From NCBI GenBank assembly GCA_013166775.1, contig JABLTJ010000002.1, positions 153,891 to 217,890 on the forward strand: 64,000 nt of DNA, read 5' to 3'. This DNA comes from Promethearchaeati archaeon (GTDB lineage Archaea > Asgardarchaeota > Heimdallarchaeia > Heimdallarchaeales > Heimdallarchaeaceae). The position numbers and the translations under genes are program-made. Numbering within the stretch: position 1 is the first letter of the stretch; each line of letters starts with the position of its first letter. Below the pieces are notes generated by a model. It was not told where the DNA came from. It saw only the letters and a list, made by a program, of their open reading frames with translations, and did no database searches. This document shows, in pieces, positions 21,964 to 34,383 of the stretch.

Positions 21964-22929
21964 ATGTCTGAAAAAGACGAGAACATTGAAACTGAAGTTA
22001 AAACAAAACAGAAACGAAAAGAAAAAAGAGCTAAAAAAGAAAGAGTACGTGATGGACGATACAAAGAAAGTACTAAAGAATTCTTTCTTGGTATTTGGAA
22101 GTTTATAAGCTTCTTTCTAAAGATAATTTTAGCACCCTTTTGGTTTACAGTTGTACTGTTTATTAAAGCAATCAAGTTTCTTAGAGAAAAAGGGGATCAT
22201 CCATTAACTGATGAAGATAAAGGATTCCTTTCTCTGATACCAAGTCTTTTCTTTATGATGTGTCTAAGTATCATCGCTGCATTTCTGATTTTCTATTTTG
22301 GATTGCTCGATAAAGCAATTGAAACAATTACAAGTGATGGATTCTGGCCAGCAGTGGGATTGTTCTTCACTCAGATTGGAAAAGGAATTTACTGGTTACT
22401 TTATGTTGTTTTCGTTGATTTTTTGTATGGAATGATCATTCAACCTTTCGGAGATTTTATGCAAAATGCAAACTACTTCTGGGCTACTCTAATCATTGTT
22501 ATTATAATCATTTTACTAGTTGGTCTAGGACTTATGATGTATCATCTTATGAAAACTCAGAAACTAATAAAAGCGATAGGACGATTTTTCAAGAAAATCT
22601 GGAGTTACCCCAAAAAAGCTCACGATTGGATAAGAGAGAAAATTGTTTTGAAATATCTAGTAGGTGAAAAACATGTCGCAACGAAATCAAAGAGTTTCTT
22701 TTGGGGTGTTGTACTCATACAATTCATCATAACAATAGCTTTATTCATCCTAGCAATTGTATTAGGTGTTTTAAACTACATACAAGGCATCTGGGTTGGA
22801 CCTGATATTCTAGAATACTCTTTAGTTGTAGCGGGAATACTTTTCCTTGTTATAGGAATCTTTTCAACCTGGTTCTTTGTTAGAGTTTACGCAGTAGCTA
22901 CTAAAGTATCTGAAGAAGCAGCTACATAA
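21964..22929 (+). CDS. Hypothetical polytopic membrane protein
   Basis: Lys/Arg-rich N-terminus and 5-6 hydrophobic helices. Confidence 0.7.
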   Translation: MSEKDENIETEVKTKQKRKEKRAKKERVRDGRYKESTKEFFLGIWKFISFFLKIILAPFWFTVVLFIKAIKFLREKGDHPLTDEDKGFLSLIPSLFFMMCLSIIAAFLIFYFGLLDKAIETITSDGFWPAVGLFFTQIGKGIYWLLYVVFVDFLYGMIIQPFGDFMQNANYFWATLIIVIIIILLVGLGLMMYHLMKTQKLIKAIGRFFKKIWSYPKKAHDWIREKIVLKYLVGEKHVATKSKSFFWGVVLIQFIITIALFILAIVLGVLNYIQGIWVGPDILEYSLVVAGILFLVIGIFSTWFFVRVYAVATKVSEEAAT

Positions 22930-23053
22930 ACCTAAACATTTCTTTCTTTTTTTAGATTTTCTTTTGTTTATGCATATGTATAGCGAATACATATTTCATT
23001 CAGTAAAATTTAAATTCTAGTCAAATAAATAATAGATATCTTTGGTGAGATTA

Positions 23054-24067
23054 ATGAAATTACGAGTCGGTATTAACGGATTTGGACGCATTGGTCGAGG
23101 TGTCTTCAGAGCAGGCTTTGCACAATCAGATGTCGAATTTGTCGGGATAAATGATGTAGGTGATTCAAAAACTATGGCTCATTTACTCAAATATGATAGC
23201 ATTCACGGTAAATTTTCTCACGATGTAGATGCATCTGAAAACCACTTAAAAGTAGGTGGTAAAGAAATCCCAATAGCTAAGGAAAGAGATCCTGCAGATA
23301 TTCCGTGGAGTGAATGGAATGCAGATATAGTTTTCGAATGTGTAGGGATTTTTAGAACATATGAGCTAGCATCAAAACATCTAGATGGAGGAGCAAAAAG
23401 AGTTATCCTTTCAGCTCCCGATAAAGGAAAAACCAAACCAATCCCAGCTTTTGTTTTTGGTGTCAATGAGGACAAATATAATCCTGAAAATCACAAAATT
23501 ATTTCAAATGCAAGCTGCACAACCAACTGTTATGCTCCTGTGACAAAACTCATCGATGAATCATTTACTATCAAATCAGGATATATGACAACAGTTCATG
23601 CCTATACAACAGATCAAAAACTTCTTGATCTTCCTCACGGTGATTTAAGAAGGGCGAGATCTGCTACATTATCTATGATTCCAACATCAACAGGAGCTGC
23701 TAAAGCAGTTGGAAAAGTTCTACCGCATCTAGAAGGAAAGCTTCAAGCAATGTCAATCAGAGTACCTACACCTAATGTGTCACTTATTGACGCAGTTTAC
23801 TCTGTAGAGAATAAAGCATCAAAAGAAGAAGTAAATCAAGTTTTTGTTAATGCGTCCCTAGGAAAACTGAAAGGAATACTTGCTGTTTCTAACGAAGAAC
23901 TAGTGTCTTCCGATTATAATGGAATTCCTTATTCAGCAACAGTAGATTTGCCATTAACAATGGCATTTGATAATCAAATCAAGATAATTGCTTGGTATGA
24001 TAATGAAACAGGATATTCTTCAAGAATGATTGATTTAGCAAGGTATATTGCAAGCAAGGAAGGTTAA
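23054..24067 (+). CDS. gap: Class I (bacterial/eukaryotic type) glyceraldehyde-3-phosphate dehydrogenase
   Basis: GINGFGRIGR, ISNASCTTNC, PTSTGAAKAV, RVPTPNVS, WYDNE. GGTGA precedes ATG 23054. Confidence 0.95.
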   Translation: MKLRVGINGFGRIGRGVFRAGFAQSDVEFVGINDVGDSKTMAHLLKYDSIHGKFSHDVDASENHLKVGGKEIPIAKERDPADIPWSEWNADIVFECVGIFRTYELASKHLDGGAKRVILSAPDKGKTKPIPAFVFGVNEDKYNPENHKIISNASCTTNCYAPVTKLIDESFTIKSGYMTTVHAYTTDQKLLDLPHGDLRRARSATLSMIPTSTGAAKAVGKVLPHLEGKLQAMSIRVPTPNVSLIDAVYSVENKASKEEVNQVFVNASLGKLKGILAVSNEELVSSDYNGIPYSATVDLPLTMAFDNQIKIIAWYDNETGYSSRMIDLARYIASKEG

Positions 24068-24068
24068 C

Positions 24069-24446
24069 TCATCCTTCCTCTATACTTTTCATCATTCCAA
24101 TAAAAGCTTTGTAAAGGCACTCTGCGCAGCTTGTTGCTTCTGGATCAATGAATAGAATTACGTCTCTCATATTTTCATAGATTTTTCTTGGAATTGCTCT
24201 ATCGCCTATAATTATTCTGCGTTGTTTTGTAGGGCATGTAATACAATCCTCTTGATCATTAGTAACAGCATTCAAACAGTAGGAGGGATTGTTAAATTCT
24301 TCTAAATTAATATGTTCTAAATCCATTGGATCAAAAAAACTAATGACAATAACCTCATCGAATTCATCATCTAAGATACAATAAGTTGCACCTTCAAGTT
24401 CTTTATGCATGGGGCATGGTTGTCTAATCCACAAAAGTTTGGACAT
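24069..24446 (-). CDS. Cys-rich hypothetical protein, possibly metal-binding
   Basis: Seven Cys in 125 aa, including CPMH, CITC and CAEC. Confidence 0.65.
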   Translation of the reverse strand: MSKLLWIRQPCPMHKELEGATYCILDDEFDEVIVISFFDPMDLEHINLEEFNNPSYCLNAVTNDQEDCITCPTKQRRIIIGDRAIPRKIYENMRDVILFIDPEATSCAECLYKAFIGMMKSIEEG

Positions 24447-24540
24447 TATATCTACGTATCAACATTCAAGTTAAAAATTTTCAGATACTCTTAATCATGA
24501 AATACGTGTTTTCTAAAAAGAATAAAAAGAGAGAGCTGAT

Positions 24541-27500
24541 TTAAGCTCTGATAGGTGCTCTGCTTCTATAATCATAGTAAATTTTAGTAATTTCACTAAC
24601 CATTTTCTCATTGAAAGTTGTCATCATTACTGGATCTCCACTTGGAGCTTTGTGTCCTAGGAAACCTTCTTCAATTCCATCTCTGGTACCCATCATTACA
24701 GTTAACTGAGGATCATCCTTTACAGTAACATTTCCCATTGTAATCATTTTTGTTAGCAAAGCTTTGTCTTTTTCGTTGTGCTGTGATGTATTTGTTACAA
24801 TCTCAAGTTTTCTACTGAAAGTATCCATGAATTCAGAATCTATCCATCGTAATGTTGGAGAAACTATAGTAGCTGAAGATTTTGTATGTCTTAGCAATGC
24901 CATCATTGTTGCTCTTACTTGCTCGTTTCCTGTCACTAACCACATATCTTCTACAGGATTGGGTTCAATTCCCTTTCCTAGTGATAGAACATCCCTTAGT
25001 ATTTTCATTGAATCTCCTGTTGCTTCTAGAACAACGTCAATTTTACCAGGAATAGTGTTTAATAGTCCAGTAATATTAGTATCAACTGCTTCTACTTCTT
25101 GCAGAGAGCTTTTAATCAAATCTTCCTTGAAGCTCATCAGTTTAGAGTTATATTCAGTTTTCTGCGAATCTGCTATTTGTGAATCTTGAACTACCTTATC
25201 TAATTTCTCTATAAATGAGTTAAGTAATGATCCAAAGAGGTCTGAAACAGTTTTTTCCAGATTAGTGAGATCAGATTTTATTGTTTCATTACCTGAAGTA
25301 ATAGTATCAGTAAGAGTATCTCTAGTCCCTTGAACATTTGTTACTAATGCTGAGGAGTTTGAATCAGAATTTGTTATAAAACTACTTATCTGATGTTGGA
25401 CATTTAGATCATAATCCTTGCTGTCCTTGTCAAACTCTTCTTTAATAGAAGTAACATTACTCTCAAAATCAGTTGACATCTTATCGTATGATTTTTCTAA
25501 ATCCTTGTGAACTCCTTCATACATTACATCGATTTCTGCTTGTACTAATGATTTGAATTCATTAGTTGAGGTGTCTAATTTACTTGAGAAAGAGTCTGTA
25601 TCCTTCTTTATTAGCTTTGGATACTCTATAGTTAGTTTCTGCATTTCCTCCTTAGTGAGTATAACTACCTCATCTAGTTCTGAAGATTTCTCAGGAGATA
25701 CATTTAATTCAGCGAGTAATTCTTCAGTACCTTCTAAGAACTGTTGAATTTCCTGATCGATTAATTCGTTTATTTCGCTTTCAACTTTTGCAGTTTGGGT
25801 AGTATAATTAGCAACTGCTTCATCTAAAGTAACAGAAACATCAGTATCTAAAGCGTTCTTAGCAGTTTCAAACTCTGATTGCATTGTTTTCATATTTGTA
25901 TCCATAGAAGAGTTAACTTTAGTAACTAATTTTGTATGATCATCAATATTTGTCTTGAGTGTCTCTTGAAGAGTATTCATAACTTCTTCATTGTTTCCTT
26001 TCATCAAAGTAAAGATTTCTTCTTTCTTTGTTTGTAATGCAGTGAGTCCTTCTTCTAAATGGAGCTGCATCTTTGTTTTATCCCCTTCTTCTGCAGATAC
26101 TGAGGATTTTACAATGTCGTCTAGAGAGGTCTTAATTTTCTTTATTACTCCACTGAATGCTTTAGATTCAGCACCGACCACTTCCCTCAATCCACTTGTG
26201 CTGGTATCCTGGAGTTCAATATATTGTTCCTCGTAAGTTACATATGTTTCTTCTATTGTTTTCTTCATCTCATCTAATGATTTTGATAATTGATCGCTTA
26301 TCTCGGTTCTAGATTTCTCAAGAGACTGACTAGATGATTGAATTGTATTGTTTGTAAATTGCGAAAGCTCATCTAGCCTTGCATTAACTCTTTGAAAAAC
26401 TCCAGTGGATAAAGTTGTCATAGAATCTGAAAATGTTTGAATCATATCCTCAGCTTTTGAACCAACACTATCCTTGAGAAGTTCAATATCTCTATTCATG
26501 CTTCCAATAAGTTGAGCCATTCTTGGCCCATCTTCCTTACCAAAAACTCTCTGAAGTTGCTTTTGATCTAATCCTTGGAAGGAGCTGTTAATTTCTTCAA
26601 TTTTCGCTACCGCTGATTTAAACTGATCACTAATTTCATTCAATCTATCTAAACTCGTTTTGTAATATATTTGTACTAAATCTGGTACTTCATCTCGTAT
26701 GTCTCTACCTCTTTTCGAAAAATCATCTGAAAATGCTTGAATATCATTATTGAATTGTGTTTCTTTTTCTTGAATTAGATCCTTAATTGCACTATCATTG
26801 TCCTTCACATTTTTCTCAATATTAGAAACAACTTTCTCTTTTAGCTCATTTAGGTGAGAAGTAAACACTTGTTTGAACTCATCATGAGTTGAAGTAAAAA
26901 TTTTAACCCGTTCATCCAGAGATGTTTGATAATCCGTTGCAGTTTTTGACAAATCATCTAAATAAGAATTAGTTGATTCTTCAAAAGTTGTCATTATTTC
27001 ATCAATAAAAGTAGTCACTTGATCACTCACTTTTTCAATTGAAGATGACAAATTTTCTTTGAAAAGGCTGAAACCATCTTCTATTCCTTTCTTGAGAAGT
27101 GATAAAAGACCATCGCTGTTCTTTTTGAAATCTTTGAGATAAGATGATAAATCAGAGCTAAGTTTGCTTTTCATTTCTTCGGTTTTACCTTCTGTTTGAG
27201 TGATTAATGCACCTAATTTTTCTACAGAATCAGTCTTGGTTTTATTAAGAAGATCTACGAATTGGTTTTCGTTTTCTTTTAGAATGTTTACAGCTGTTTC
27301 TTTTGATTTATCTATTGATGATTTGATTCTGTTAGTAGTTGCTTCTTCAAGTTTCTTAAGTTCTTCATTCAATGAAGCTAGAATCAATTTTGTTTTTTCT
27401 TGATGTTTATCTAATTTGGTTTCATAATTTGCAATTATTTTGTTTAGTGTGCCTGTTAGTTTTTTAGTTGAATCTTGAGTGGATGTCTTTGAATCAGATT

Positions 27501-28311
27501 TGATTTTGTTTACTACATCGCTAGTTACTTCATCTATAACTTTTTTCTTCCCTTTTGCAGTTTCAAGAAATGTTTGAAGCTGCAAGGATAGACTCTCCTT
27601 TATTCCTTCCACTTTCTCCAATATTGCATCAAGTTGAACATTTATTCTTACGTTGTGTTCTTGTTGAAGAGAACCGAATGTTTCTTCAACCTTAAGCTTG
27701 AAAGCTTCATGATGTTCTCCTATTTTGTGTATTGTGGAATCGAAGGAATTCAAAACGTTCTCTCTAACTCTTTGAGCAGATTTAGCTATATTCTCACTGT
27801 TTGTAGAAGATATTGTTGAAGTTTCGGAATTAACTCTTTCAATAATCTCTGTTAGTTCACTCTTTCCTGTGTCTACATGTGATGATATAATTTCTAGAAA
27901 TTGTTTTGATATCCCACTTACTTCTTGAGAATGAGCGTCTACATCTTGAGTGATTTTCTCATGAAAACTAGTTAATTGTGTTCTAAAATTCTGCATTGTT
28001 TTATTCCAATCAACTTTAACATCATCACTCAGAGTTTTCAATTCATTTTCTAAACGTTGAGAAACGTCTTCTGTTAATTTAATTTGAGGAGGTAATGGAA
28101 TATAATAAGAAGTTCCTTCTGCATTTTTTGCTTTTACCTCTTTAACATATCCGCGACCAACCAATTTTTCCAATGCTGAATTTATTTCATCAGCAGAGAT
28201 CTTAACGTAGGTCTGGATTTGTCCAACAGTACGGAAACCATACTGCACAATGTTTGAATAAACTTGGATTTCATCTTTCGATAATCCTATTTTTTCTAAT
28301 GTTCCTTGCAT
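24541..28311 (-). CDS. TrmB-like protein (N-terminal wHTH, C-terminal TrmB effector/PLD-like domain) split by a ~1040-aa helical rod
   Basis: N-terminus LEKIGLSKDEIQVY...L.KL..RGYV...YYIPLPP is TrmB-type. C-terminus MWLVTG.EQV...L.HTKSSATIVSP...RDG.E matches the TrmB C-domain pattern. aa 76-1116 is helical with only 5 Pro. Confidence 0.75.
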   Translation of the reverse strand: MQGTLEKIGLSKDEIQVYSNIVQYGFRTVGQIQTYVKISADEINSALEKLVGRGYVKEVKAKNAEGTSYYIPLPPQIKLTEDVSQRLENELKTLSDDVKVDWNKTMQNFRTQLTSFHEKITQDVDAHSQEVSGISKQFLEIISSHVDTGKSELTEIIERVNSETSTISSTNSENIAKSAQRVRENVLNSFDSTIHKIGEHHEAFKLKVEETFGSLQQEHNVRINVQLDAILEKVEGIKESLSLQLQTFLETAKGKKKVIDEVTSDVVNKIKSDSKTSTQDSTKKLTGTLNKIIANYETKLDKHQEKTKLILASLNEELKKLEEATTNRIKSSIDKSKETAVNILKENENQFVDLLNKTKTDSVEKLGALITQTEGKTEEMKSKLSSDLSSYLKDFKKNSDGLLSLLKKGIEDGFSLFKENLSSSIEKVSDQVTTFIDEIMTTFEESTNSYLDDLSKTATDYQTSLDERVKIFTSTHDEFKQVFTSHLNELKEKVVSNIEKNVKDNDSAIKDLIQEKETQFNNDIQAFSDDFSKRGRDIRDEVPDLVQIYYKTSLDRLNEISDQFKSAVAKIEEINSSFQGLDQKQLQRVFGKEDGPRMAQLIGSMNRDIELLKDSVGSKAEDMIQTFSDSMTTLSTGVFQRVNARLDELSQFTNNTIQSSSQSLEKSRTEISDQLSKSLDEMKKTIEETYVTYEEQYIELQDTSTSGLREVVGAESKAFSGVIKKIKTSLDDIVKSSVSAEEGDKTKMQLHLEEGLTALQTKKEEIFTLMKGNNEEVMNTLQETLKTNIDDHTKLVTKVNSSMDTNMKTMQSEFETAKNALDTDVSVTLDEAVANYTTQTAKVESEINELIDQEIQQFLEGTEELLAELNVSPEKSSELDEVVILTKEEMQKLTIEYPKLIKKDTDSFSSKLDTSTNEFKSLVQAEIDVMYEGVHKDLEKSYDKMSTDFESNVTSIKEEFDKDSKDYDLNVQHQISSFITNSDSNSSALVTNVQGTRDTLTDTITSGNETIKSDLTNLEKTVSDLFGSLLNSFIEKLDKVVQDSQIADSQKTEYNSKLMSFKEDLIKSSLQEVEAVDTNITGLLNTIPGKIDVVLEATGDSMKILRDVLSLGKGIEPNPVEDMWLVTGNEQVRATMMALLRHTKSSATIVSPTLRWIDSEFMDTFSRKLEIVTNTSQHNEKDKALLTKMITMGNVTVKDDPQLTVMMGTRDGIEEGFLGHKAPSGDPVMMTTFNEKMVSEITKIYYDYRSRAPIRA

Positions 28312-28320
28312 TTTAATCCC

Positions 28321-29775
28321 TTATCTATACAATTCATTCTTTATTGCTTCGATGTTCTTTTCTAATCTTTCTAAACGACTTATGAGATCTCTTTTCCTTT
28401 TCTCTGATTCTTCTGCTAGTTTTATATTTTGCTTTGCTTCAGTTTCCAAATCAGTTAGAGTGGTTTCTTGAGTCGCTATTATTTGACCTTTAGCTGCAGA
28501 TGCGGATGAAGATAAATCAGCTACAGCATCCTTTTCAACAGATTCCAGTCTTGTAATAATTTGGCTACTGGTTTTGTCTACTGATTCAATTATATCAGAA
28601 ACATCTTGCTCTATTGAAGATATTTTGTCTACAATTGTACTATTTGCTCTACTTTCGATATCAGATATCTTGCTCTCAAGATCAGTTTTCATTTCTTCAA
28701 ATTTTGAATTAAGTTGTTCTTGTTCACTTGATAATAATGTTTTAGCTTCTTGTTTCATCGTATCAGACTGTTCTGAGAAAGATGTTAGAATTTTATCAAC
28801 ATCTTCATTAAATCCTTCTTCAAAACCTTGAAGTTCGTTGCTATGTGCTTCTAGTTGATCTTTCGCAATTCCATCATATTTCTTAATCATATCAGCTTTT
28901 GAGCTATTGAAATTTGACATTGCTACTTCATTCACATCTATCATACCTTTTTCGTATTCAGCAAGAACATCTTGAACTTTAGTAATTTCATCTACAAGGT
29001 ATTTATCCATTGTATCTGATACACCTGAAAGTTCAGCTTGAATTCTTTTTACTGCGTTACTTACTAATTGTTCCAAATCATTTTTGATTCTATTAAAACT
29101 CTCAAAGATGGATTCCATATTCTCTGTTAATTTATCACCATATTCTGAACGTAAATGTTCAATTGATTCAAGCATAATATTCTCTGTAATGTTAATATTA
29201 TCATTAAGCTGTTCTTTCATATCTTCAGCGTTCTTTTCAAATGTACTAATGTTGTTGTTTTTTATTTCAACGATATTCTCTTTAGCTCCTGTAACTACTT
29301 TTCTAAAAGTGTTAATTTGGTTATTAGCTAATCTTTCCAAATCTTGGGTATGGGAGCCTATAACTGTATTAATATTATCATTAAAGGAAGTTGTATAATT
29401 TCCATACATAGTCTTGCTTTCAGATAGCAGTGAAACAATCGATTCTTTTAGATTTTCAAGCTGATTATTAGTCTCTGTGAACTTAGAATAGATAGTTTCT
29501 TTTTGGGATTCCGTCCATTCTTGAACTAAATTTTTGTTATCAGAAGTATTTTTACTAGTTTGTTCTTCTAACTTGTTTTTGTTTTCATCTATAAGATTCC
29601 TGAGATTCTCATTCAATGCAATGAATTTATTCTGAATTAAAGTTGTTAAAACCTGATAATATCTTTGAAGCTCCAACATACCTTCCAGAGATTCTTTAAA
29701 ATTTGTAACTTCATTTTCCAGATTTTCAATTTCCCTTCTTATTTTCTCTAAATCCTTTTCTACTCTTTCTGACAT
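28321..29775 (-). CDS. All-helical, proline-free coiled-coil protein
   Basis: No Pro or Cys; continuous amphipathic pattern. AGGTGA overlaps the upstream TAG and precedes ATG 29775 (ORF track GTG 29784). Confidence 0.8.
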   Translation of the reverse strand: MSERVEKDLEKIRREIENLENEVTNFKESLEGMLELQRYYQVLTTLIQNKFIALNENLRNLIDENKNKLEEQTSKNTSDNKNLVQEWTESQKETIYSKFTETNNQLENLKESIVSLLSESKTMYGNYTTSFNDNINTVIGSHTQDLERLANNQINTFRKVVTGAKENIVEIKNNNISTFEKNAEDMKEQLNDNINITENIMLESIEHLRSEYGDKLTENMESIFESFNRIKNDLEQLVSNAVKRIQAELSGVSDTMDKYLVDEITKVQDVLAEYEKGMIDVNEVAMSNFNSSKADMIKKYDGIAKDQLEAHSNELQGFEEGFNEDVDKILTSFSEQSDTMKQEAKTLLSSEQEQLNSKFEEMKTDLESKISDIESRANSTIVDKISSIEQDVSDIIESVDKTSSQIITRLESVEKDAVADLSSSASAAKGQIIATQETTLTDLETEAKQNIKLAEESEKRKRDLISRLERLEKNIEAIKNELYR

Positions 29776-29784
29776 TTTTTTCAC

Positions 29785-31572
29785 CTAAAAATCTAATTCT
29801 TTTTCTATGCTTTCAATTTCAATTTCTTCAACTTTTTTTGGTTCAGGTTTTGGTTCTGGTTCAGGTTCTGATTCAACCTGCGGTAATTCAACCTCAACTA
29901 ATTTTTCAAATTTCATTGATTTGAAATAATTATGATGAATACTTTCCTCATTATAAAGCTCTATTGCTTTCTTACGAATTCTCTCGTAGTTTTGTTCGTC
30001 TCCTATCTTGTTATAGCAATCGAGGGTAGATTTTATGTAACCTCTTATCGCATACTCACTTTTCGCTAATGGGAGAGATAAAGATAATTTTTCAAACTGA
30101 TCTGCAGCTCTTGTATACGATCTTTTTGCCTTTAATTCTTGATCTACAGCGTCATAATATTGAGCTGATTTCACATATAATTTTGCTGCAAAGTAATAAT
30201 TTTTCTCTTCAAATTCTCTTGCCATGTTTTCACAAAAGCCACCTGCTTGTTCTAATTCTTTTATTAATTCAAATTGCTGCACATTTATCAATGAAAAGTC
30301 ATATGCTCTTTGATACATCTTTTTCTTTATGCATATATTTGCTATTTTCTTCACTTTGGATGTTAATGCAAAATCAGCTAAAGGATCTCTAATTTTAGCA
30401 GATAGTTGATTGATTATCTCAATGGTTCCAGTAGATGGGGCAATATCTTTGTCAAGATCATCCAAAATGCCATCCAATTTAACCATCAGAGTTGTTAATG
30501 GTCCGAACAATCTTATTCTAAACTTCATTGTTGTTAGAAGTGATTCTTGCAATAATCTAGCATACGTTTCACCTAACCAAAGCATACCTTTTTCTTCAAG
30601 TTTCTTCAATGTTGGAGTTGAAATATAAGCTGATAATTGTTCAATAGGAAACAAATTCTCATTGTAAGAAGCCATTTCTAACAAAGCAGTTTCTTCTTCT
30701 TCATTTAATTCAAACAAATCTTTTAAATTGCGTTCTACAAAATTTTCAAGCCCCAAATCTGAAGAGATAAAAGCAATCCCTAAATTTAAATCAAAAATTG
30801 ATCTCTTACTTGTTGTTATTAAATCCAAAACCCCTTTGTTTATCAATTGTGGAGCTTTCCTTCGCAAGTAAATTTCAGTTTCTGAAATAGACAATGCTTC
30901 TACCTTAAGAATATTTGAATTGTCAGTAAGATATTTTTCGTAATCAAAATCATACAGAAACCTTTCATCAAATGTGCTTGTAACTATTATGTTATACTGT
31001 CGTTCCTTTAGTTCTTTAATTATAGAAGCAAAAATTGGATAGAATTCATATAAATCCAGTAATTTAAAAAGATGCAAATTATCAACGAAGAAATAAAGAA
31101 AAGTACTAGTTTCTATTAATTTTTGGTTTATCTTATCCAAATTTTCGAAGAATAAATTTACATAGAATTCTGTAAAAGAGATACTCGCTGGTTTCTTAAC
31201 CTCTTCATCTAGTCCAGGTAGATCATCTCCTAATCTCTTTTTACCCACTTTTTCAAGTAAGGAGCGCCATTCAGGGGCTAATTCATCTATTTTGTTTTTC
31301 CATTCCTTAAAGAAATCCAGAAGTCCTCTTTCTTTTGGTACAAGTTCAAAACGATGTGCAATGTCTTTTCTTCCAGTAGCAGTGGTTTCAAGTTTCTGCA
31401 AAAGTGAACTTTTCCCAGTTCCTTCAGCTCCAACTATTAAGAACGATAATACTTCAGATTCTCCTCTTTTTTTCTTATTTACAAGTTCAACAAAATTATT
31501 TATTGTCTCTCTCAGACCATAAAAGTCATGTGGCTGGCATGGTTGGAAAAGACTAATATTCTCTATAGTCAT
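29785..31572 (-). CDS. STAND/AAA_16-like P-loop ATPase with C-terminal TPR/alpha-SNAP-like helical repeats
   Basis: FYG start motif, Walker A GAEGTGKS, Walker B FFVDN. C-terminal LEQAGGFCENMAREF, YYFAAKLYVKSAQYY, AKRSYTRAADQF; EP-rich acidic tail. Confidence 0.75.
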   Translation of the reverse strand: MTIENISLFQPCQPHDFYGLRETINNFVELVNKKKRGESEVLSFLIVGAEGTGKSSLLQKLETTATGRKDIAHRFELVPKERGLLDFFKEWKNKIDELAPEWRSLLEKVGKKRLGDDLPGLDEEVKKPASISFTEFYVNLFFENLDKINQKLIETSTFLYFFVDNLHLFKLLDLYEFYPIFASIIKELKERQYNIIVTSTFDERFLYDFDYEKYLTDNSNILKVEALSISETEIYLRRKAPQLINKGVLDLITTSKRSIFDLNLGIAFISSDLGLENFVERNLKDLFELNEEEETALLEMASYNENLFPIEQLSAYISTPTLKKLEEKGMLWLGETYARLLQESLLTTMKFRIRLFGPLTTLMVKLDGILDDLDKDIAPSTGTIEIINQLSAKIRDPLADFALTSKVKKIANICIKKKMYQRAYDFSLINVQQFELIKELEQAGGFCENMAREFEEKNYYFAAKLYVKSAQYYDAVDQELKAKRSYTRAADQFEKLSLSLPLAKSEYAIRGYIKSTLDCYNKIGDEQNYERIRKKAIELYNEESIHHNYFKSMKFEKLVEVELPQVESEPEPEPKPEPKKVEEIEIESIEKELDF

Positions 31573-31772
31573 TTGAATCCTCGCGCAATTCTTAATTTGA
31601 TAATATACATTTTCTACTTATAAAATCTGTGAATGATTAACATTATGAAAAGATTTGCTTTGTTGTAAATGTTGCTTATTTTTTCTATGGCTATATATTC
31701 CAATTAGAAAGAGATAAAAATGTATTTGCCAGATTGTTCATAATAACCGCAGAGGTGAAATGATGACGATAG

Positions 31773-32198
31773 GTGAACGTTTTGTTGGCTCCAGCAATAA
31801 TTCAAGTAGAAGAGCTGGAAAGAATCGAAGAATCAAAAGAAGGGATCATCTTTGCGCGAAAGAGGATAAAGGAGCTTGAGAATAGCCTTATTTTTCTAAA
31901 TGAATTGTACAATCAGAGTTTGATCATTTTACTTGATCAACTAAAAGATAAGCAAAAACAGATATTCTTTGCAGCATCGAAGATTTTAACTAAAAAGAAT
32001 ATATCTCTGAATAGACTATCAAACATGCTTTCAGAAAGATTTGATTTATCATTCTCCACTATCAAATGGAATCTAACGAAGCTAAGAGATATTGGCTTGT
32101 TTGAAACCTTTGGTGAAAGAGGAAATACTAAGACTATTCTAATGCTGACACATCTTGGTCTCTCTCTTTACTCGAATTTTGCGCAAACTGGAAAATAA
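31773..32198 (+). CDS. Winged-helix DNA-binding protein, divergent from the ATPase/coiled-coil operon
   Basis: SLNRLS..LSERFDLSFSTIKWNLTKLRDIGLFET...LTHLG is a wHTH signature. Confidence 0.7.
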   Translation: MNVLLAPAIIQVEELERIEESKEGIIFARKRIKELENSLIFLNELYNQSLIILLDQLKDKQKQIFFAASKILTKKNISLNRLSNMLSERFDLSFSTIKWNLTKLRDIGLFETFGERGNTKTILMLTHLGLSLYSNFAQTGK

Positions 32199-32255: not shown

Positions 32256-33176
32256 ATGAAATCCGATTTTAAGAAATACAAAAAATCAGGATCAATCTTA
32301 GCGGACGCTTTAAAATACGCTAAAGAGATTACAAAACCTGGAATAAAACTCATTGATATTGCTGAAAAAATGGAAAATTTCATTCGAAATCAATCTGCTC
32401 AGCCAGCTTTCCCAGTAAACATCTCAATTAATGAGATTGCAGCTCATTATTCTCCAGTAGTAAACGATGATAGTACAATACCGGAAGGATCAATTGTTAA
32501 GATTGATGCAGGAGTTTCTGTAGATGGATTCCTTACAGATGCAGCTCGAACCTTTATTTTTGATGAAAAATGGACTAAAATGAAACTTCTGGCTGAAAAT
32601 GCTCTAGAAAATGCACTAAAGGAAATTAGACCAAATGGCAGTGTTTTCAAGGTTGGAGAAATAATTGAGAAGACAATTAAGAAGGAAGGATATAAACCAA
32701 TAGTGAATCTTAGTGGTCATCTAATGACCCAGTATTCCTTACATGGAGGAGTCTCAATACCAAACTACAAGATTTCAAGAGAAGCAAGAGACGATTCACA
32801 TAGATTTATTCCTGGAAATGCTTATGCAATAGAACCTTTTGTAACAACAGGATCTGGAAAAGTATTTGATGATAAAAATACGACAATTTACAGACATTAT
32901 CGAGATTTCAAGAAAAATGAAATTCCAGAAGATATTGAGGAAATCTATCTATATATCAAACAAAATTTCTTTAATTTACCTTTTAGCTGGAGATGGTTAT
33001 TTAACTCAGGTTTCAGCGTAAAACAAATTGATAAAGCAAAAGAAATTTTGCTAAGTAAGCATATTGTACATGGTTATCCTGTTTTGATAGAATCAAAATT
33101 CGCTCCTGTGACACAGGCGGAAGAAACTATTTATGTTAATAAGGATGAAATCATAATTCTAACAAACACAAAATAG
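32256..33176 (+). CDS. map: Methionine aminopeptidase type II
   Basis: AFPVNISINEIAAHYSP, KIDAGV.VDG..TD.A.T, NLSGH, AIEPF and the helical type II insert; final motif QAEET. Confidence 0.93.
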   Translation: MKSDFKKYKKSGSILADALKYAKEITKPGIKLIDIAEKMENFIRNQSAQPAFPVNISINEIAAHYSPVVNDDSTIPEGSIVKIDAGVSVDGFLTDAARTFIFDEKWTKMKLLAENALENALKEIRPNGSVFKVGEIIEKTIKKEGYKPIVNLSGHLMTQYSLHGGVSIPNYKISREARDDSHRFIPGNAYAIEPFVTTGSGKVFDDKNTTIYRHYRDFKKNEIPEDIEEIYLYIKQNFFNLPFSWRWLFNSGFSVKQIDKAKEILLSKHIVHGYPVLIESKFAPVTQAEETIYVNKDEIIILTNTK

Positions 33177-33198
33177 TTTTGATAAAAGAAAAAAGAGA

Positions 33199-34383
33199 TT
33201 AGATGATTAAATCCTCAAGTTCTCTTGGATAGGGAGTAATGTGCTCTGATCCATCTTCTGTGATGATAACAGTTTCTGAATGTCTGAATCCTCCGAATTT
33301 ATATTCGTAGATTCCAGGCTCGCATGTTAATACCATACCAGGTTTCATGATTTCATCTACACCTATATCTAGAAATGGTGCTTCATGACCTTCTAAACCT
33401 ATAGCATGACCGGTGTGGTGTTGTGTTAGATTATTCAAACCTTCTTCTTTGAAAACAGCAATTGCAGCTTTGTCAACTGCACTACATGGAACACCAGGTT
33501 TGAACGCTTCCAACGCAGTATCTTGTGCTTTTTTCATTACGTTGAAATATCGTTTTTGTTTTTCATTGGGTTTTCCAATGAACATCGTTCTCTCTAGCTC
33601 TGATAAATATCCTGATACATTTGCAGATGCACCTGTTACAAGAACATCACCCTTCTTGAAGGCAGTTTTTTGCAGTACGGAATGAGGGATAGCTGACCAT
33701 TCACCTATTTGTCCCCTGTAACCTGCACCAGCTGGTAAAAAGTTTCTAGGGATAAAACCTTCTAAATCATTTAACATTTTCTTTGAAGCTTCCATACTTG
33801 CATGCAAAGAAACATCTACTTCATTCTTACCTTCTGCAGTATACTCTTGAAGTAATCGATGTGCTAAATCACCATACTTAGCAGAGATTCTAATCAAATT
33901 CAATTCTTCTTCATCTTTGATTTTACGAATTTGTGGAATTAAAGCAGAATGAATTTCTGTTTTAGTTTTGTTTCCAATGAGATCAGTTAGTTTTGGTCCT
34001 TCATAACCCCAATAATTTGAAAATGAAGGAGCTTCCAATCCGATTTTTAAACTAGTAATCTTATTTTCAACAAGGTTATCAACGAATATTTTTGCAGGAT
34101 GCTTTTCATCAGGATATTCAAAGTATAATTCCCTATGAATCCAGGGTAACTTTTCCATTAAGTGTTCTTTTTCCAATCTAGGAACAAAAAACCACGGATC
34201 ATCTAGTGCTGGAAGTACAAAAGCAATTGGTCTTTCAGTTGGAATAAAATGATATCCGGTTAGATAGTAAATAGAAAGAGGATTGAAAAAAATCATTGAT
34301 CCTAGTTCTTTATCCTTACAAAAATGTTGTATTTTTGCTCTTCTTTTTTTGTGATTTTCTTTTGAAATTGCATATTTGTTCAT
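33199..34383 (-). CDS. M24 family Xaa-Pro/creatinase-like peptidase
   Basis: YLTG, RKIKDEEE, HHTGHAIGLEGHEAP, EPGIY, GFRHSET. The first metal ligands look atypical (TGAS..V.GYLSELERT). Confidence 0.85.
   Translation of the reverse strand: MNKYAISKENHKKRRAKIQHFCKDKELGSMIFFNPLSIYYLTGYHFIPTERPIAFVLPALDDPWFFVPRLEKEHLMEKLPWIHRELYFEYPDEKHPAKIFVDNLVENKITSLKIGLEAPSFSNYWGYEGPKLTDLIGNKTKTEIHSALIPQIRKIKDEEELNLIRISAKYGDLAHRLLQEYTAEGKNEVDVSLHASMEASKKMLNDLEGFIPRNFLPAGAGYRGQIGEWSAIPHSVLQKTAFKKGDVLVTGASANVSGYLSELERTMFIGKPNEKQKRYFNVMKKAQDTALEAFKPGVPCSAVDKAAIAVFKEEGLNNLTQHHTGHAIGLEGHEAPFLDIGVDEIMKPGMVLTCEPGIYEYKFGGFRHSETVIITEDGSEHITPYPRELEDLII

Follow-up and report, generated by a model that had tools for sequence, protein, structure and literature searches.

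A conserved Asgard operon encoding a STAND-type ATPase and two long hendecad-repeat proteins, one with a TrmBL2-type head

TrmBL2, a nucleoid-associated protein of the Thermococcales, and its relative TrmB (253 to 263 and 335 residues per chain, respectively) consist of a winged helix-turn-helix (wHTH) domain and a phospholipase D (PLD)-like C-terminal domain, with one helix leaving the former and another entering the latter. Here we analyze a locus of a Heimdallarchaeaceae genome (Promethearchaeati archaeon, GenBank assembly GCA_013166775.1), found in a 64,000-nucleotide stretch of contig JABLTJ010000002.1 (positions 153,891 to 217,890, hereafter the window), where the same two domains and the same helices are kept in a protein of 1256 amino acids (aa) that carries a ~1020-residue hendecad (11-residue repeat) insert predicted to fold back on itself. 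Unlike TrmBL2 and TrmB, this protein (gene 3) is encoded together with a STAND-type ATPase (gene 1) and a second rod-like protein (gene 2), the three open reading frames being co-oriented on the minus strand of the window (29785-31572, 595 aa; 28321-29784, 487 aa when read from a GTG; and 24541-28311, 1256 aa). We propose with moderate confidence that they constitute a conserved Asgard operon for the assembly of DNA-anchored rods governed by a nucleotide switch.

Other described systems resemble single parts of this locus. The arms of SMC, Rad50, and MukB, like the one predicted for gene 3, have antiparallel strands that return the N- and C-terminal domains to one end and change in length by matched insertions and deletions (indels) on both strands, and a proline break at residues 860 to 898 of gene 3 recalls an elbow. 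The analogy to SMC drawn in the original prediction is apt for the fold-back arm only: the head of gene 3 is a wHTH plus a PLD-like domain rather than a split ABC ATPase (no ATPase or P-loop family was matched), its apex is a Gly-Pro loop of ~24 residues with neither a hinge domain nor a zinc hook (the protein has no cysteine), its repeat is the hendecad and not the heptad of SMC-type arms, and the ATPase is a separate STAND protein. Long, straight coiled coils with an 11-residue repeat and an a-d-e-h core are found, as in the rods described here, in the tetrabrachion stalk, the peripheral stalks of rotary ATPases, and the tail of ZorA. The tetrabrachion stalk is a right-handed hendecad coiled coil. 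Rotary-ATPase peripheral stalks likewise form right-handed hendecad coiled coils (PMC6131620). However, these are parallel bundles on membrane or surface machines, whereas the rods of this locus show antiparallel signatures and a putative DNA-binding head, and we claim no shared descent.

With respect to the ATPase, gene 1 has the same domain order as STAND NTPases with TPR sensors (6mfv; MalT, 8bob; Avs3, 8dgc; and 2qen and 2fna). STAND NTPases have an effector or signaling domain fused to the nucleotide-binding domain (NBD), typically at the N terminus. Gene 1 differs from the proteins listed in that it has no N-terminal effector, a short (~200-aa) SNAP-like repeat domain, and an acidic tail ending in EKELDF. 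SNAP (Sec17) is an adaptor that binds along the SNARE four-helix bundle; alpha/gamma-SNAP was the closest natural protein to the gene 1 repeat family in profile searches, and gene 1 is encoded beside long helical-bundle proteins. The scores are, however, below the Pfam cut-off, a link to eukaryotes need not follow, and no NSF-type partner is implied. The parts all belong to known superfamilies (STAND, TrmB/TrmBL2, and hendecad coiled coils), but the searchable literature yielded no account of giant TrmB rods, or of an operon that joins them to a STAND ATPase, in agreement with the original prediction, which recognized no described system of this composition. To our knowledge, nothing of the rod kind figures in current accounts of archaeal chromatin, in which histones, Alba, SMC, and TrmBL2 are listed.

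The gene 3 head and its hendecad arm

The N-terminal domain of gene 3 is a TrmB wHTH, with sequence matches in the PDB to AF2008 and TrmB (3qph). It was present in all five distant orthologues inspected, in three of them above the Pfam cut-off and in two just below it (24.7 and 22.6 bits). At the other end of the protein, the AlphaFold2 model of the ~150-aa C-terminal domain had as its first Foldseek match TrmBL2 (5bpd, E value of 1.1e-8, TMq 0.68), and eight of the top ten matches were TrmBL2 chains (5bpd, 5bpi, 5box, and 5bqt; E values from 1e-8 to 2e-7), together with the phospholipase D 7e0m. TrmB itself (3qph, E value of 7.7e-7; 2f5t, E value of 5.8e-6) and nucleases of the PLD fold came after TrmBL2. 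Only the fold search detected this relationship, as sequence-only searches of the PDB with the C-domain, either as a single sequence or as a profile, gave no TrmB relative. Conservation of these ~150 residues extends across Asgard lineages; Lys1144 does not vary, and an R-D-x-x-E-E motif (residues 1210 to 1215) is invariant in Heimdallarchaeaceae orthologues and nearly so across lineages. No HKD motif was found in the domain. The combination of a TrmB wHTH and a TrmBL2-like C-domain identifies gene 3 as a TrmBL2-type protein with ~1020 residues of coiled coil in place of the linker helix, and its head would be expected to bind DNA.

The helical stretch between residue 78 and approximately residue 1100 shares with gene 2 a very regular periodicity. 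The hydrophobicity spectra of both have a sharp peak at 3.66 to 3.67 residues (11/3), where the power is 31 times the white-noise expectation in gene 2 and 64 times in the gene 3 insert, with the phase constant over hundreds of residues. The register is that of a classical hendecad with an a-d-e-h core, positions a and h being ~70 to 90% hydrophobic and d/e about half, so to speak a narrow hydrophobic seam of ~2.4 of 11 positions. Both rods are acidic, with net charges of -37 for gene 2 and of -19 and -42 for the two arms of gene 3. Period-22 power is 0.5 to 0.65, and prolines number four over ~1000 residues of gene 3 and are absent from gene 2. BLASTP found no significant similarity between the two proteins. 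The rods also matched apolipoprotein, apolipophorin, phasin, and ZorA-tail profiles, a result that fits shared periodicity; the parts defining those families were not covered.

Three independent signals indicate that the arm of gene 3 folds back near residue 592. The first is the phase of the repeat, which after arm 1 breaks at the only Gly-Pro phase break of the insert, located in its middle, and then resumes in arm 2 at approximately +85 degrees for residues 597 to 858 and -165 degrees for residues 881 to 1050. The second comes from two length classes of gene 3 that coexist in one genus (1256 to 1264 aa and 1470 to 1473 aa). By optimal piecewise alignment, the long form differs by one insertion of 106 aa after residue 440 (26989-26994) and another of 106 to 109 aa after residues 735 to 744 (26080-26109); exactly two insertions were recovered in 10/12 pairwise fits, placed in mirror positions about residues 586.5 to 592. 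A matched change of length on both strands is what a hairpin requires. The third is conservation, since the profile of arm 1, when mirrored onto arm 2, gives an r of 0.743 with the mirror at residue 591.5, versus a mean r of -0.18 (maximum, 0.27) for mirrors displaced by more than 25 residues and 0.53 for the best parallel pairing. From these sequence signatures we conclude that the insert is predicted to be an antiparallel hairpin that turns near residue 592. With an assumed α-helix rise of ~0.148 nm per residue, the arm would measure ~75 nm in this genome and ~92 nm in the long form.

On arm 2 the proline break lies ~280 to 305 residues from the apex; arm 1 shows nothing as sharp. The arm 2 break may act as an elbow or provide a docking site.

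The second rod and the ATPase

Gene 2 keeps a single register from approximately residue 23 to residue 440 (~420 residues) without any break, and a Jordarchaeales orthologue does so over 739 residues. It matched no Pfam family at the cut-off of that family. Its length is nearly fixed, at 479 to 487 aa across the family Heimdallarchaeaceae and 482 to 487 aa in congeners. A nearly invariant block is centered on the midpoint of the protein, and conservation along 14 Heimdallarchaeaceae sequences is mirror symmetric about residue 243 of 484 (r of 0.82). The symmetry persists when the central ±50 or ±70 residues are removed (r of 0.58 to 0.61), compared with at most 0.2 to 0.36 for other mirror positions. 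This mirrored conservation is most simply read as the mark of a homo-oligomer whose chains run antiparallel and in register, the conserved block lying on its two-fold axis, so that gene 2 most likely pairs with itself.

Gene 1 matched Pfam AAA_16 at 34 bits (cut-off of 32.6), and its relatives match ATPase_2 and nSTAND1. The AlphaFold2 model, built from an alignment of 45 family members, had a mean predicted local distance difference test score (pLDDT) of 87.9, and its best Foldseek match was 6mfv, a STAND protein with a TPR sensor (E value of 9.4e-9), other matches being Avs3, SAMD9, the archaeal ATPases 2qen and 2fna, CED-4, NLRC4, Apaf-1, MalT, and Orc1/Cdc6. Residues 1 to 357 in VIA-align retrieved Orc1/Cdc6, MalT (Z of 15.2), NLRP9 (Z of 14.5), and BrxC, with Z-scores of 14 to 15. 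Both tools thus gave the domain order of the STAND type, i.e., NBD, helical domain, winged helix, and then a repeat domain. Neither the Pfam scan nor the model provided an effector domain, whether nuclease, protease, or other, and the NBD already starts at approximately residue 17.

The repeat domain (residues 357 to 560) matched the TPR domain of LGN (Z of 13.2) and gamma-SNAP (2ifu; Z of 12.5, root mean square deviation of 4.9 over 173 residues) in VIA-align, Z-scores that fall within the range that the tool warns is common for helical repeats. When a profile of the repeat-domain family was compared to the PDB, alpha-SNAP was the best natural match (E value of 2.4e-3), and Pfam SNAP (PF14938) was matched by 11/23 isolated repeat domains of the family, with a best E value of 3.6e-6. 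Among ten full-length family members, none reached the 25-bit gathering cut-off of this Pfam entry, the best two scoring 23.8 and 19.6 bits. Proteins with TPR repeats annotated as SNAP are common in Archaea. Atlas look-alikes had scores of 0.79 to 0.86, to be read as leads only. Because the scores are under the cut-off, gene 1 itself gives no match, and such TPR proteins are common in Archaea, we use "SNAP-like" as a description of the fold and not of family membership. Only orthologues from Heimdallarchaeaceae keep the C-terminal (E/D)KEL(D/E)F motif, which other lineages lack and which resembles a short docking motif.

The nucleotide-binding motifs are kept in most of the family, while the residue after the Walker B aspartate, usually the catalytic acid, is Asn in 22/45 members, Asp in 10/45, and Glu in just 1/45. 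Replacement of the usual catalytic Glu with retention of the binding motifs fits a slow switch better than a motor, and gene 1 is probably a slow nucleotide switch. The members with Arg in place of the Walker A Lys include L026:10039-11727 (-), L029:2111-3820 (+), and three others; these copies may bind nucleotide differently or may not hydrolyze it. The ATPase is present in a single copy in this genome, and its family, all of whose members carry Asgard names, is constant in length (548 to 631 aa).

Most of what the original prediction had read from the letters of the window is confirmed or supported by these data. It had described three co-oriented, coupled genes (now with AGGTGA placed over the gene 1 stop and a 9-nucleotide [nt] gap between genes 2 and 3); a P-loop ATPase with helical repeats (Walker A, AAA_16, and the C-terminal repeats of the model); a proline-free helix of ~484 aa (484 aa, no proline, and the 11/3 periodicity); a TrmB-like head with a giant fold-back arm (PF01978, the TrmBL2-like C-domain, mirrored indels, and mirrored conservation); and a rod of ~70 to 80 nm (~70 nm estimated for gene 2 and ~75 nm for gene 3).

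Operon layout and distribution across Asgard archaea

At the junction between genes 1 and 2 (TTT TAG GTG AAA AAA ATG), the AGGTGA motif is 5 nt ahead of the ATG and shares nucleotides with the gene 1 stop codon (TAG). We take gene 2 as 484 aa because its orthologues start with MSE(K/R) and the Atlas record starts at the same ATG. The junction between genes 2 and 3 is TAA-GGGATTAAA-ATG, a gap of exactly 9 nt. Upstream of gene 1, the divergent spacer contains TTTTATAAG ~55 nt before the ATG and GAGG 6 to 9 nt before it, and likely holds the operon promoter. Downstream of gene 3, two T-runs follow an inverted repeat, and the next gene has a TATA-like box of its own. The tight junctions, the T-rich terminator-like site, and the separate TATA-like box together make the three genes look like one transcription unit.

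The neighborhood search for the triplet, suggested along with the original prediction, revealed a conserved module. The order ATPase, proline-free hendecad protein, and TrmB-headed hendecad protein was found at 10 further loci from 9 GTDB families with unrelated flanks, under the names Heimdallarchaeum, Wukongarchaeota, Jordarchaeales, Freyarchaeum, and Borrarchaeum. The lengths of genes 2 and 3 (in aa), beginning with the locus in the window, were 484/1256, 482/1471, 479/1440, 436/1478, 463/1475, 768/1532, 767/1806, 770/1176, and 425/1453. We detected the ATPase in 70/300 sampled Asgard genomes, including every sampled genome of families f1 (28/28), f2 (11/11), f4 (3/3), f20 (5/5), and f23 (6/6), and its identity falls with taxonomic distance. 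Rods with a TrmB head are far more widespread: using a C-domain profile we found them in 281/300 genomes, usually 1 to 6 per genome and with open reading frames of ~600 to 1800 aa. Families f11, f14, and f17 have giant rods (e.g., 1794 aa and 1281 aa) and no ATPase orthologue detected with the 45-sequence profile. Giant rods without a detectable ATPase indicate that the rod can work without the ATPase module, which looks like a lineage-restricted regulator or adaptor.

The genome studied here also encodes two shorter paralogues of gene 3 on contig C1 (L044:6318-8570 [+], 750 aa; L045:6021-8330 [+], 769 to 772 aa), both combining a wHTH and ~500 hendecad residues with the PLD-like C-domain seen in gene 3. 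In a tree of C-domains (27 rows and 163 columns, backbone unresolved), the operon-linked copies of the Heimdall order formed one well-supported clade. The solo giant rods of f11 and f17 grouped with the ATPase-linked copy of Helarchaeota at 80/96, which is not strong, and the 750-aa paralogue grouped with solo copies of 808 to 810 aa from the Heimdall family f5 (85/87). Genomes of f5 (e.g., G256, G208, and G139) have ~4 to 9 TrmB rods each, in size classes of ~727, 768, 808, 1400, and 1540 aa.

The coordinates of all features are collected in Table 1. Outside the three genes, the divergent gene at 31773-32198 (+) codes for 141 aa. The original prediction had called it a wHTH gene; the gene is there, but the HTH assignment is weak (HTH_24, E value of 0.05; TK0271-family activator, E value of 1.3e-4). 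It is kept at the same position within the genus and the family and is a candidate local regulator of the operon. On the other side, 94 nt downstream of gene 3, a Cys-rich gene of 125 aa (24069-24446, minus strand), the one with its own TATA-like box, had no match in Pfam or NCBIfam. It is found in the same place, at 42 to 55% identity, in two other Heimdallarchaeaceae loci, with the motifs QPCPMH, CPTK, and C-x-x-CLYKAF, and may encode a zinc-binding protein. In Heimdallarchaeaceae, the flanks of the operon (21964-24067 and 32256-34383 in the window) are occupied by housekeeping genes for GAPDH, a type II methionine aminopeptidase, and a second M24 peptidase. The sequencing runs listed as containing the stretch are all DNA runs from marine sediments and cold seeps, with no RNA run among them.

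Table 1. Features of the rod operon, in window coordinates
Feature	Position	Strand	Basis
Gene 1, effector-less STAND-type P-loop NTPase	29785..31572	-	595 aa; AAA_16, AlphaFold2 model, Foldseek
Gene 1 residues 1-357, nucleotide-binding domain, helical domain, winged helix	30502..31572	-	VIA-align ranges 1-340/357
Gene 1 Walker A, GAEGTGKS	31408-31431	-	GxxGxGK(S/T); K in 40/45 family members, R in 5/45
Gene 1 Walker B, hhhhD	31078-31098	-	D in 44/45 family members
Gene 1 residues 358-556, TPR/SNAP-like helical repeat domain	29905..30501	-	Nine helices in model
Gene 1 residues 557-595, disordered acidic Pro/Glu-rich tail ending EKELDF	29788..29904	-	pLDDT <50; net charge -9
Gene 2, proline-free continuous hendecad helix	28324..29775 plus stop	-	484 aa; likely ATG start at 29775
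Gene 2 residues 199-287, nearly invariant central block	28915..29181	-	Identity to consensus 0.83-0.89, flanks 0.42-0.7
Gene 3, TrmBL2-type protein with giant arm predicted to fold back	24541..28311	-	1256 aa
Gene 3 residues 5-75, TrmB winged helix-turn-helix	28087..28299	-	PF01978, E 2.2e-10, 40.6 bits vs cut-off 25.6
Gene 3 arm 1, residues 78-572, uninterrupted hendecad helix	26596..28080	-	Phase ~-170 degrees over ~500 residues
Gene 3 apex, residues 573-596, including Gly595-Pro596	26524..26595	-	Collapse of hendecad power and phase jump
Gene 3 arm 2, residues 597-1095, hendecad helix of the predicted return strand, one conserved break	25027..26523	-	Phase analysis
Gene 3 arm 2 break, residues 860-898	25618-25734	-	Pro873 invariant, Pro898 nearly invariant
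Gene 3 residues 1105-1256, PLD-like C-terminal domain, TrmBL2 type	24544..24999	-	AlphaFold2 model, pLDDT 86
Divergent intergenic region, likely operon promoter	31573..31772	.	200-bp AT-rich spacer, sequence only
Terminator-like site directly after gene 3 stop	24512..24540	-	Inverted repeat AGAGCT/AGCTCT then TCTTTTTATTCTTTTT; sequence only

A model of rod assembly and its alternatives

In the assembly that we propose, a short pairing helix of the TrmBL2 family would have grown into two antiparallel hendecad strands of ~500 residues each that turn at Gly595-Pro596, so that both end domains, the wHTH and the PLD-like one, would meet at the same end of a ~75-nm rod that is straight and strongly acidic. 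Gene 3 would anchor on DNA and project this rigid rod. Gene 2 would form a separate rod of ~70 nm by antiparallel in-register self-pairing, with the central block on the two-fold axis; the predicted pairing is of residue i with ~1183-i in gene 3 and with ~486-i in gene 2. The TPR/SNAP-like domain of gene 1 would grip a rod, and nucleotide-dependent self-association of the ATPase could then gather or release rods. The net effect would be to hold DNA at a fixed distance from, or to bridge it to, another structure. For the grip, a complex prediction of the gene 1 repeat domain with two gene 2 central blocks scored 0.01 (against a mark of 0.32), which is evidence neither way.

Several observations weigh against this model. 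The fold-back of gene 3 and the self-pairing of gene 2 are read from sequence signatures, not from structure; the mirror symmetry of gene 2 was uninformative or not replicated in three other lineages (with 2 to 3 sequences each), and part of the pattern could also arise from a binding site at the center with variable sequence on either side. Regarding the ATPase, the repeat domain of gene 1 itself had no SNAP match at E values up to 1, its helical-repeat Z-scores sit in the range of common arrangements, and the Walker A Lys is replaced by Arg in 5/45 family members. The link between ATPase and rod is not obligatory either, as the genome counts for the two (70/300 versus 281/300) make clear. 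In Helarchaeota, the ATPase is directly followed by a TrmB rod of 1110 aa, with no gene 2 at the locus, and in f5 the ATPase and a 718-aa gene 2 are adjacent but the 1545-aa gene 3 is 8 to 18 kb away. Two solo-rod loci, from f11 and f17, have no ATPase or gene 2 beside the rod, and neither of the two shorter paralogues in our genome adjoins an ATPase or a gene 2. Lastly, the whole neighborhood is syntenic within Heimdallarchaeaceae, where synteny by itself says little.

The original prediction favored a composite, SMC-like rod, with gene 2 lying lengthwise and stoichiometrically along an arm of gene 3 and the ATPase loading or remodeling it. We now regard this arrangement as improbable. In this genome the length of gene 2 is indeed close to that of one arm (484 aa versus ~500 to 515 aa), the genes are tightly coupled, and both proteins share the hendecad a-d-e-h pattern. 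However, the lengths do not co-vary, an outcome that the original prediction had itself listed as a refutation: gene 2 stays at 482 to 487 aa in congeners in which the gene 3 arms are longer by ~106 aa per strand, and across lineages the two lengths are unrelated (compare 436/1478 and 425/1453 with 768/1532, 767/1806, and 770/1176). Besides, the conservation of gene 2 mirrors about its own midpoint, as expected for pairing with itself, Helarchaeota combine the ATPase and gene 3 without gene 2, and gene 3 has neither an ABC head nor a hinge domain.

Just as improbable, in our estimate, is a lipid or membrane scaffold, also raised in the original prediction and here taken as one of the apolipoprotein or perilipin kind, in which the TrmB head would tether DNA to a lipid surface lined by the 11-residue-repeat helices. 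A periodicity of 11/3 is typical of lipid-bound amphipathic helices. Pfam Apolipoprotein (PF01442) scored gene 3 at 91.0 bits, summed over five stretches, against a cut-off of 90 (gene 2 stayed below it, with 38.3 bits), and a C-terminal profile that included arm sequence matched ApoA-IV and ApoA-I in the PDB, through the part belonging to the arm. Against a lipid surface speak the narrow a-d-e-h seam and the strongly negative charge of the rods, the lack of a 22-residue periodicity and of nearly all proline punctuation, and the paired mirrored indels and mirrored conservation, which point to pairing between helices.

A role in antiviral defense, with an Avs- or NLR-like STAND sensor ATPase and coiled-coil effector or scaffold proteins resembling the ZorA tail of Zorya, seems to us very improbable. 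The structural matches of gene 1 do include Avs3, Avs4, Avs5, and BrxC, and the ZorA profiles of PADLOC and NCBIfam match the rods with E values down to 6e-18. Yet these matches cover only late profile positions (~240 to 780), taken as the tail, with no MotA/ExbB domain matched, and their scores are far below the NCBIfam cut-offs (38.5 versus 250), which fits shared periodicity and not descent. No nuclease, protease, or other effector domain was found, and an ATPase present in every sampled genome of five families, in single copy here and in a stable housekeeping neighborhood, with identity that falls with taxonomic distance, is unlike a defense island. The least credible alternative, an ordinary TrmB-type transcription factor with a long linker acting near sugar-metabolism genes and with two unrelated neighbors, can draw on the control of glycolytic and gluconeogenic genes by TrmB-family regulators in Thermococcales and on the convergent GAPDH gene just downstream in all Heimdallarchaeaceae loci seen, but the ~150-aa TrmBL2-type C-domain ends after the PLD-like fold and leaves no room for the second, sugar-binding subdomain of TrmB, the linkage of ATPase and rod persists where GAPDH is no neighbor, and selection on the rod itself is evident from the length-matched indels and from a register kept perfectly over ~1000 helical residues. 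None of these four explanations fits as well as the DNA-anchored rod assembly under a nucleotide switch.

Taken further, that assembly could be an Asgard chromosome-organizing device that is neither SMC nor histone, in which TrmBL2-derived DNA heads carry straight, acidic fold-back rods of defined length, from ~65 nm (the 1110-aa form) to 115 nm (the 1806-aa form), the STAND switch with its SNAP-like grip and the second, two-fold symmetric rod gather or release them in several lineages, and the whole acts as a spacer or tether between the nucleoid and another cell structure, foreshadowing in prokaryotes a scaffold of the nucleoskeletal or tethering type. We consider this extension rather unlikely. 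The system itself can be approached experimentally: rod lengths are measurable by electron microscopy, the predicted residue pairings can be checked by crosslinking, and the proteins are acidic and predicted to be soluble. The variants with 106 aa more per strand within one genus provide a natural experiment on the purpose of rod length. An uninterrupted hendecad of up to 739 residues in one register is also an extreme case that bears on protein design and coiled-coil theory. If our reading is true, the closest prokaryotic relatives of eukaryotes would carry widespread DNA-anchored molecular rulers, tens of nanometers long, which in many lineages would be coupled to a nucleotide switch.

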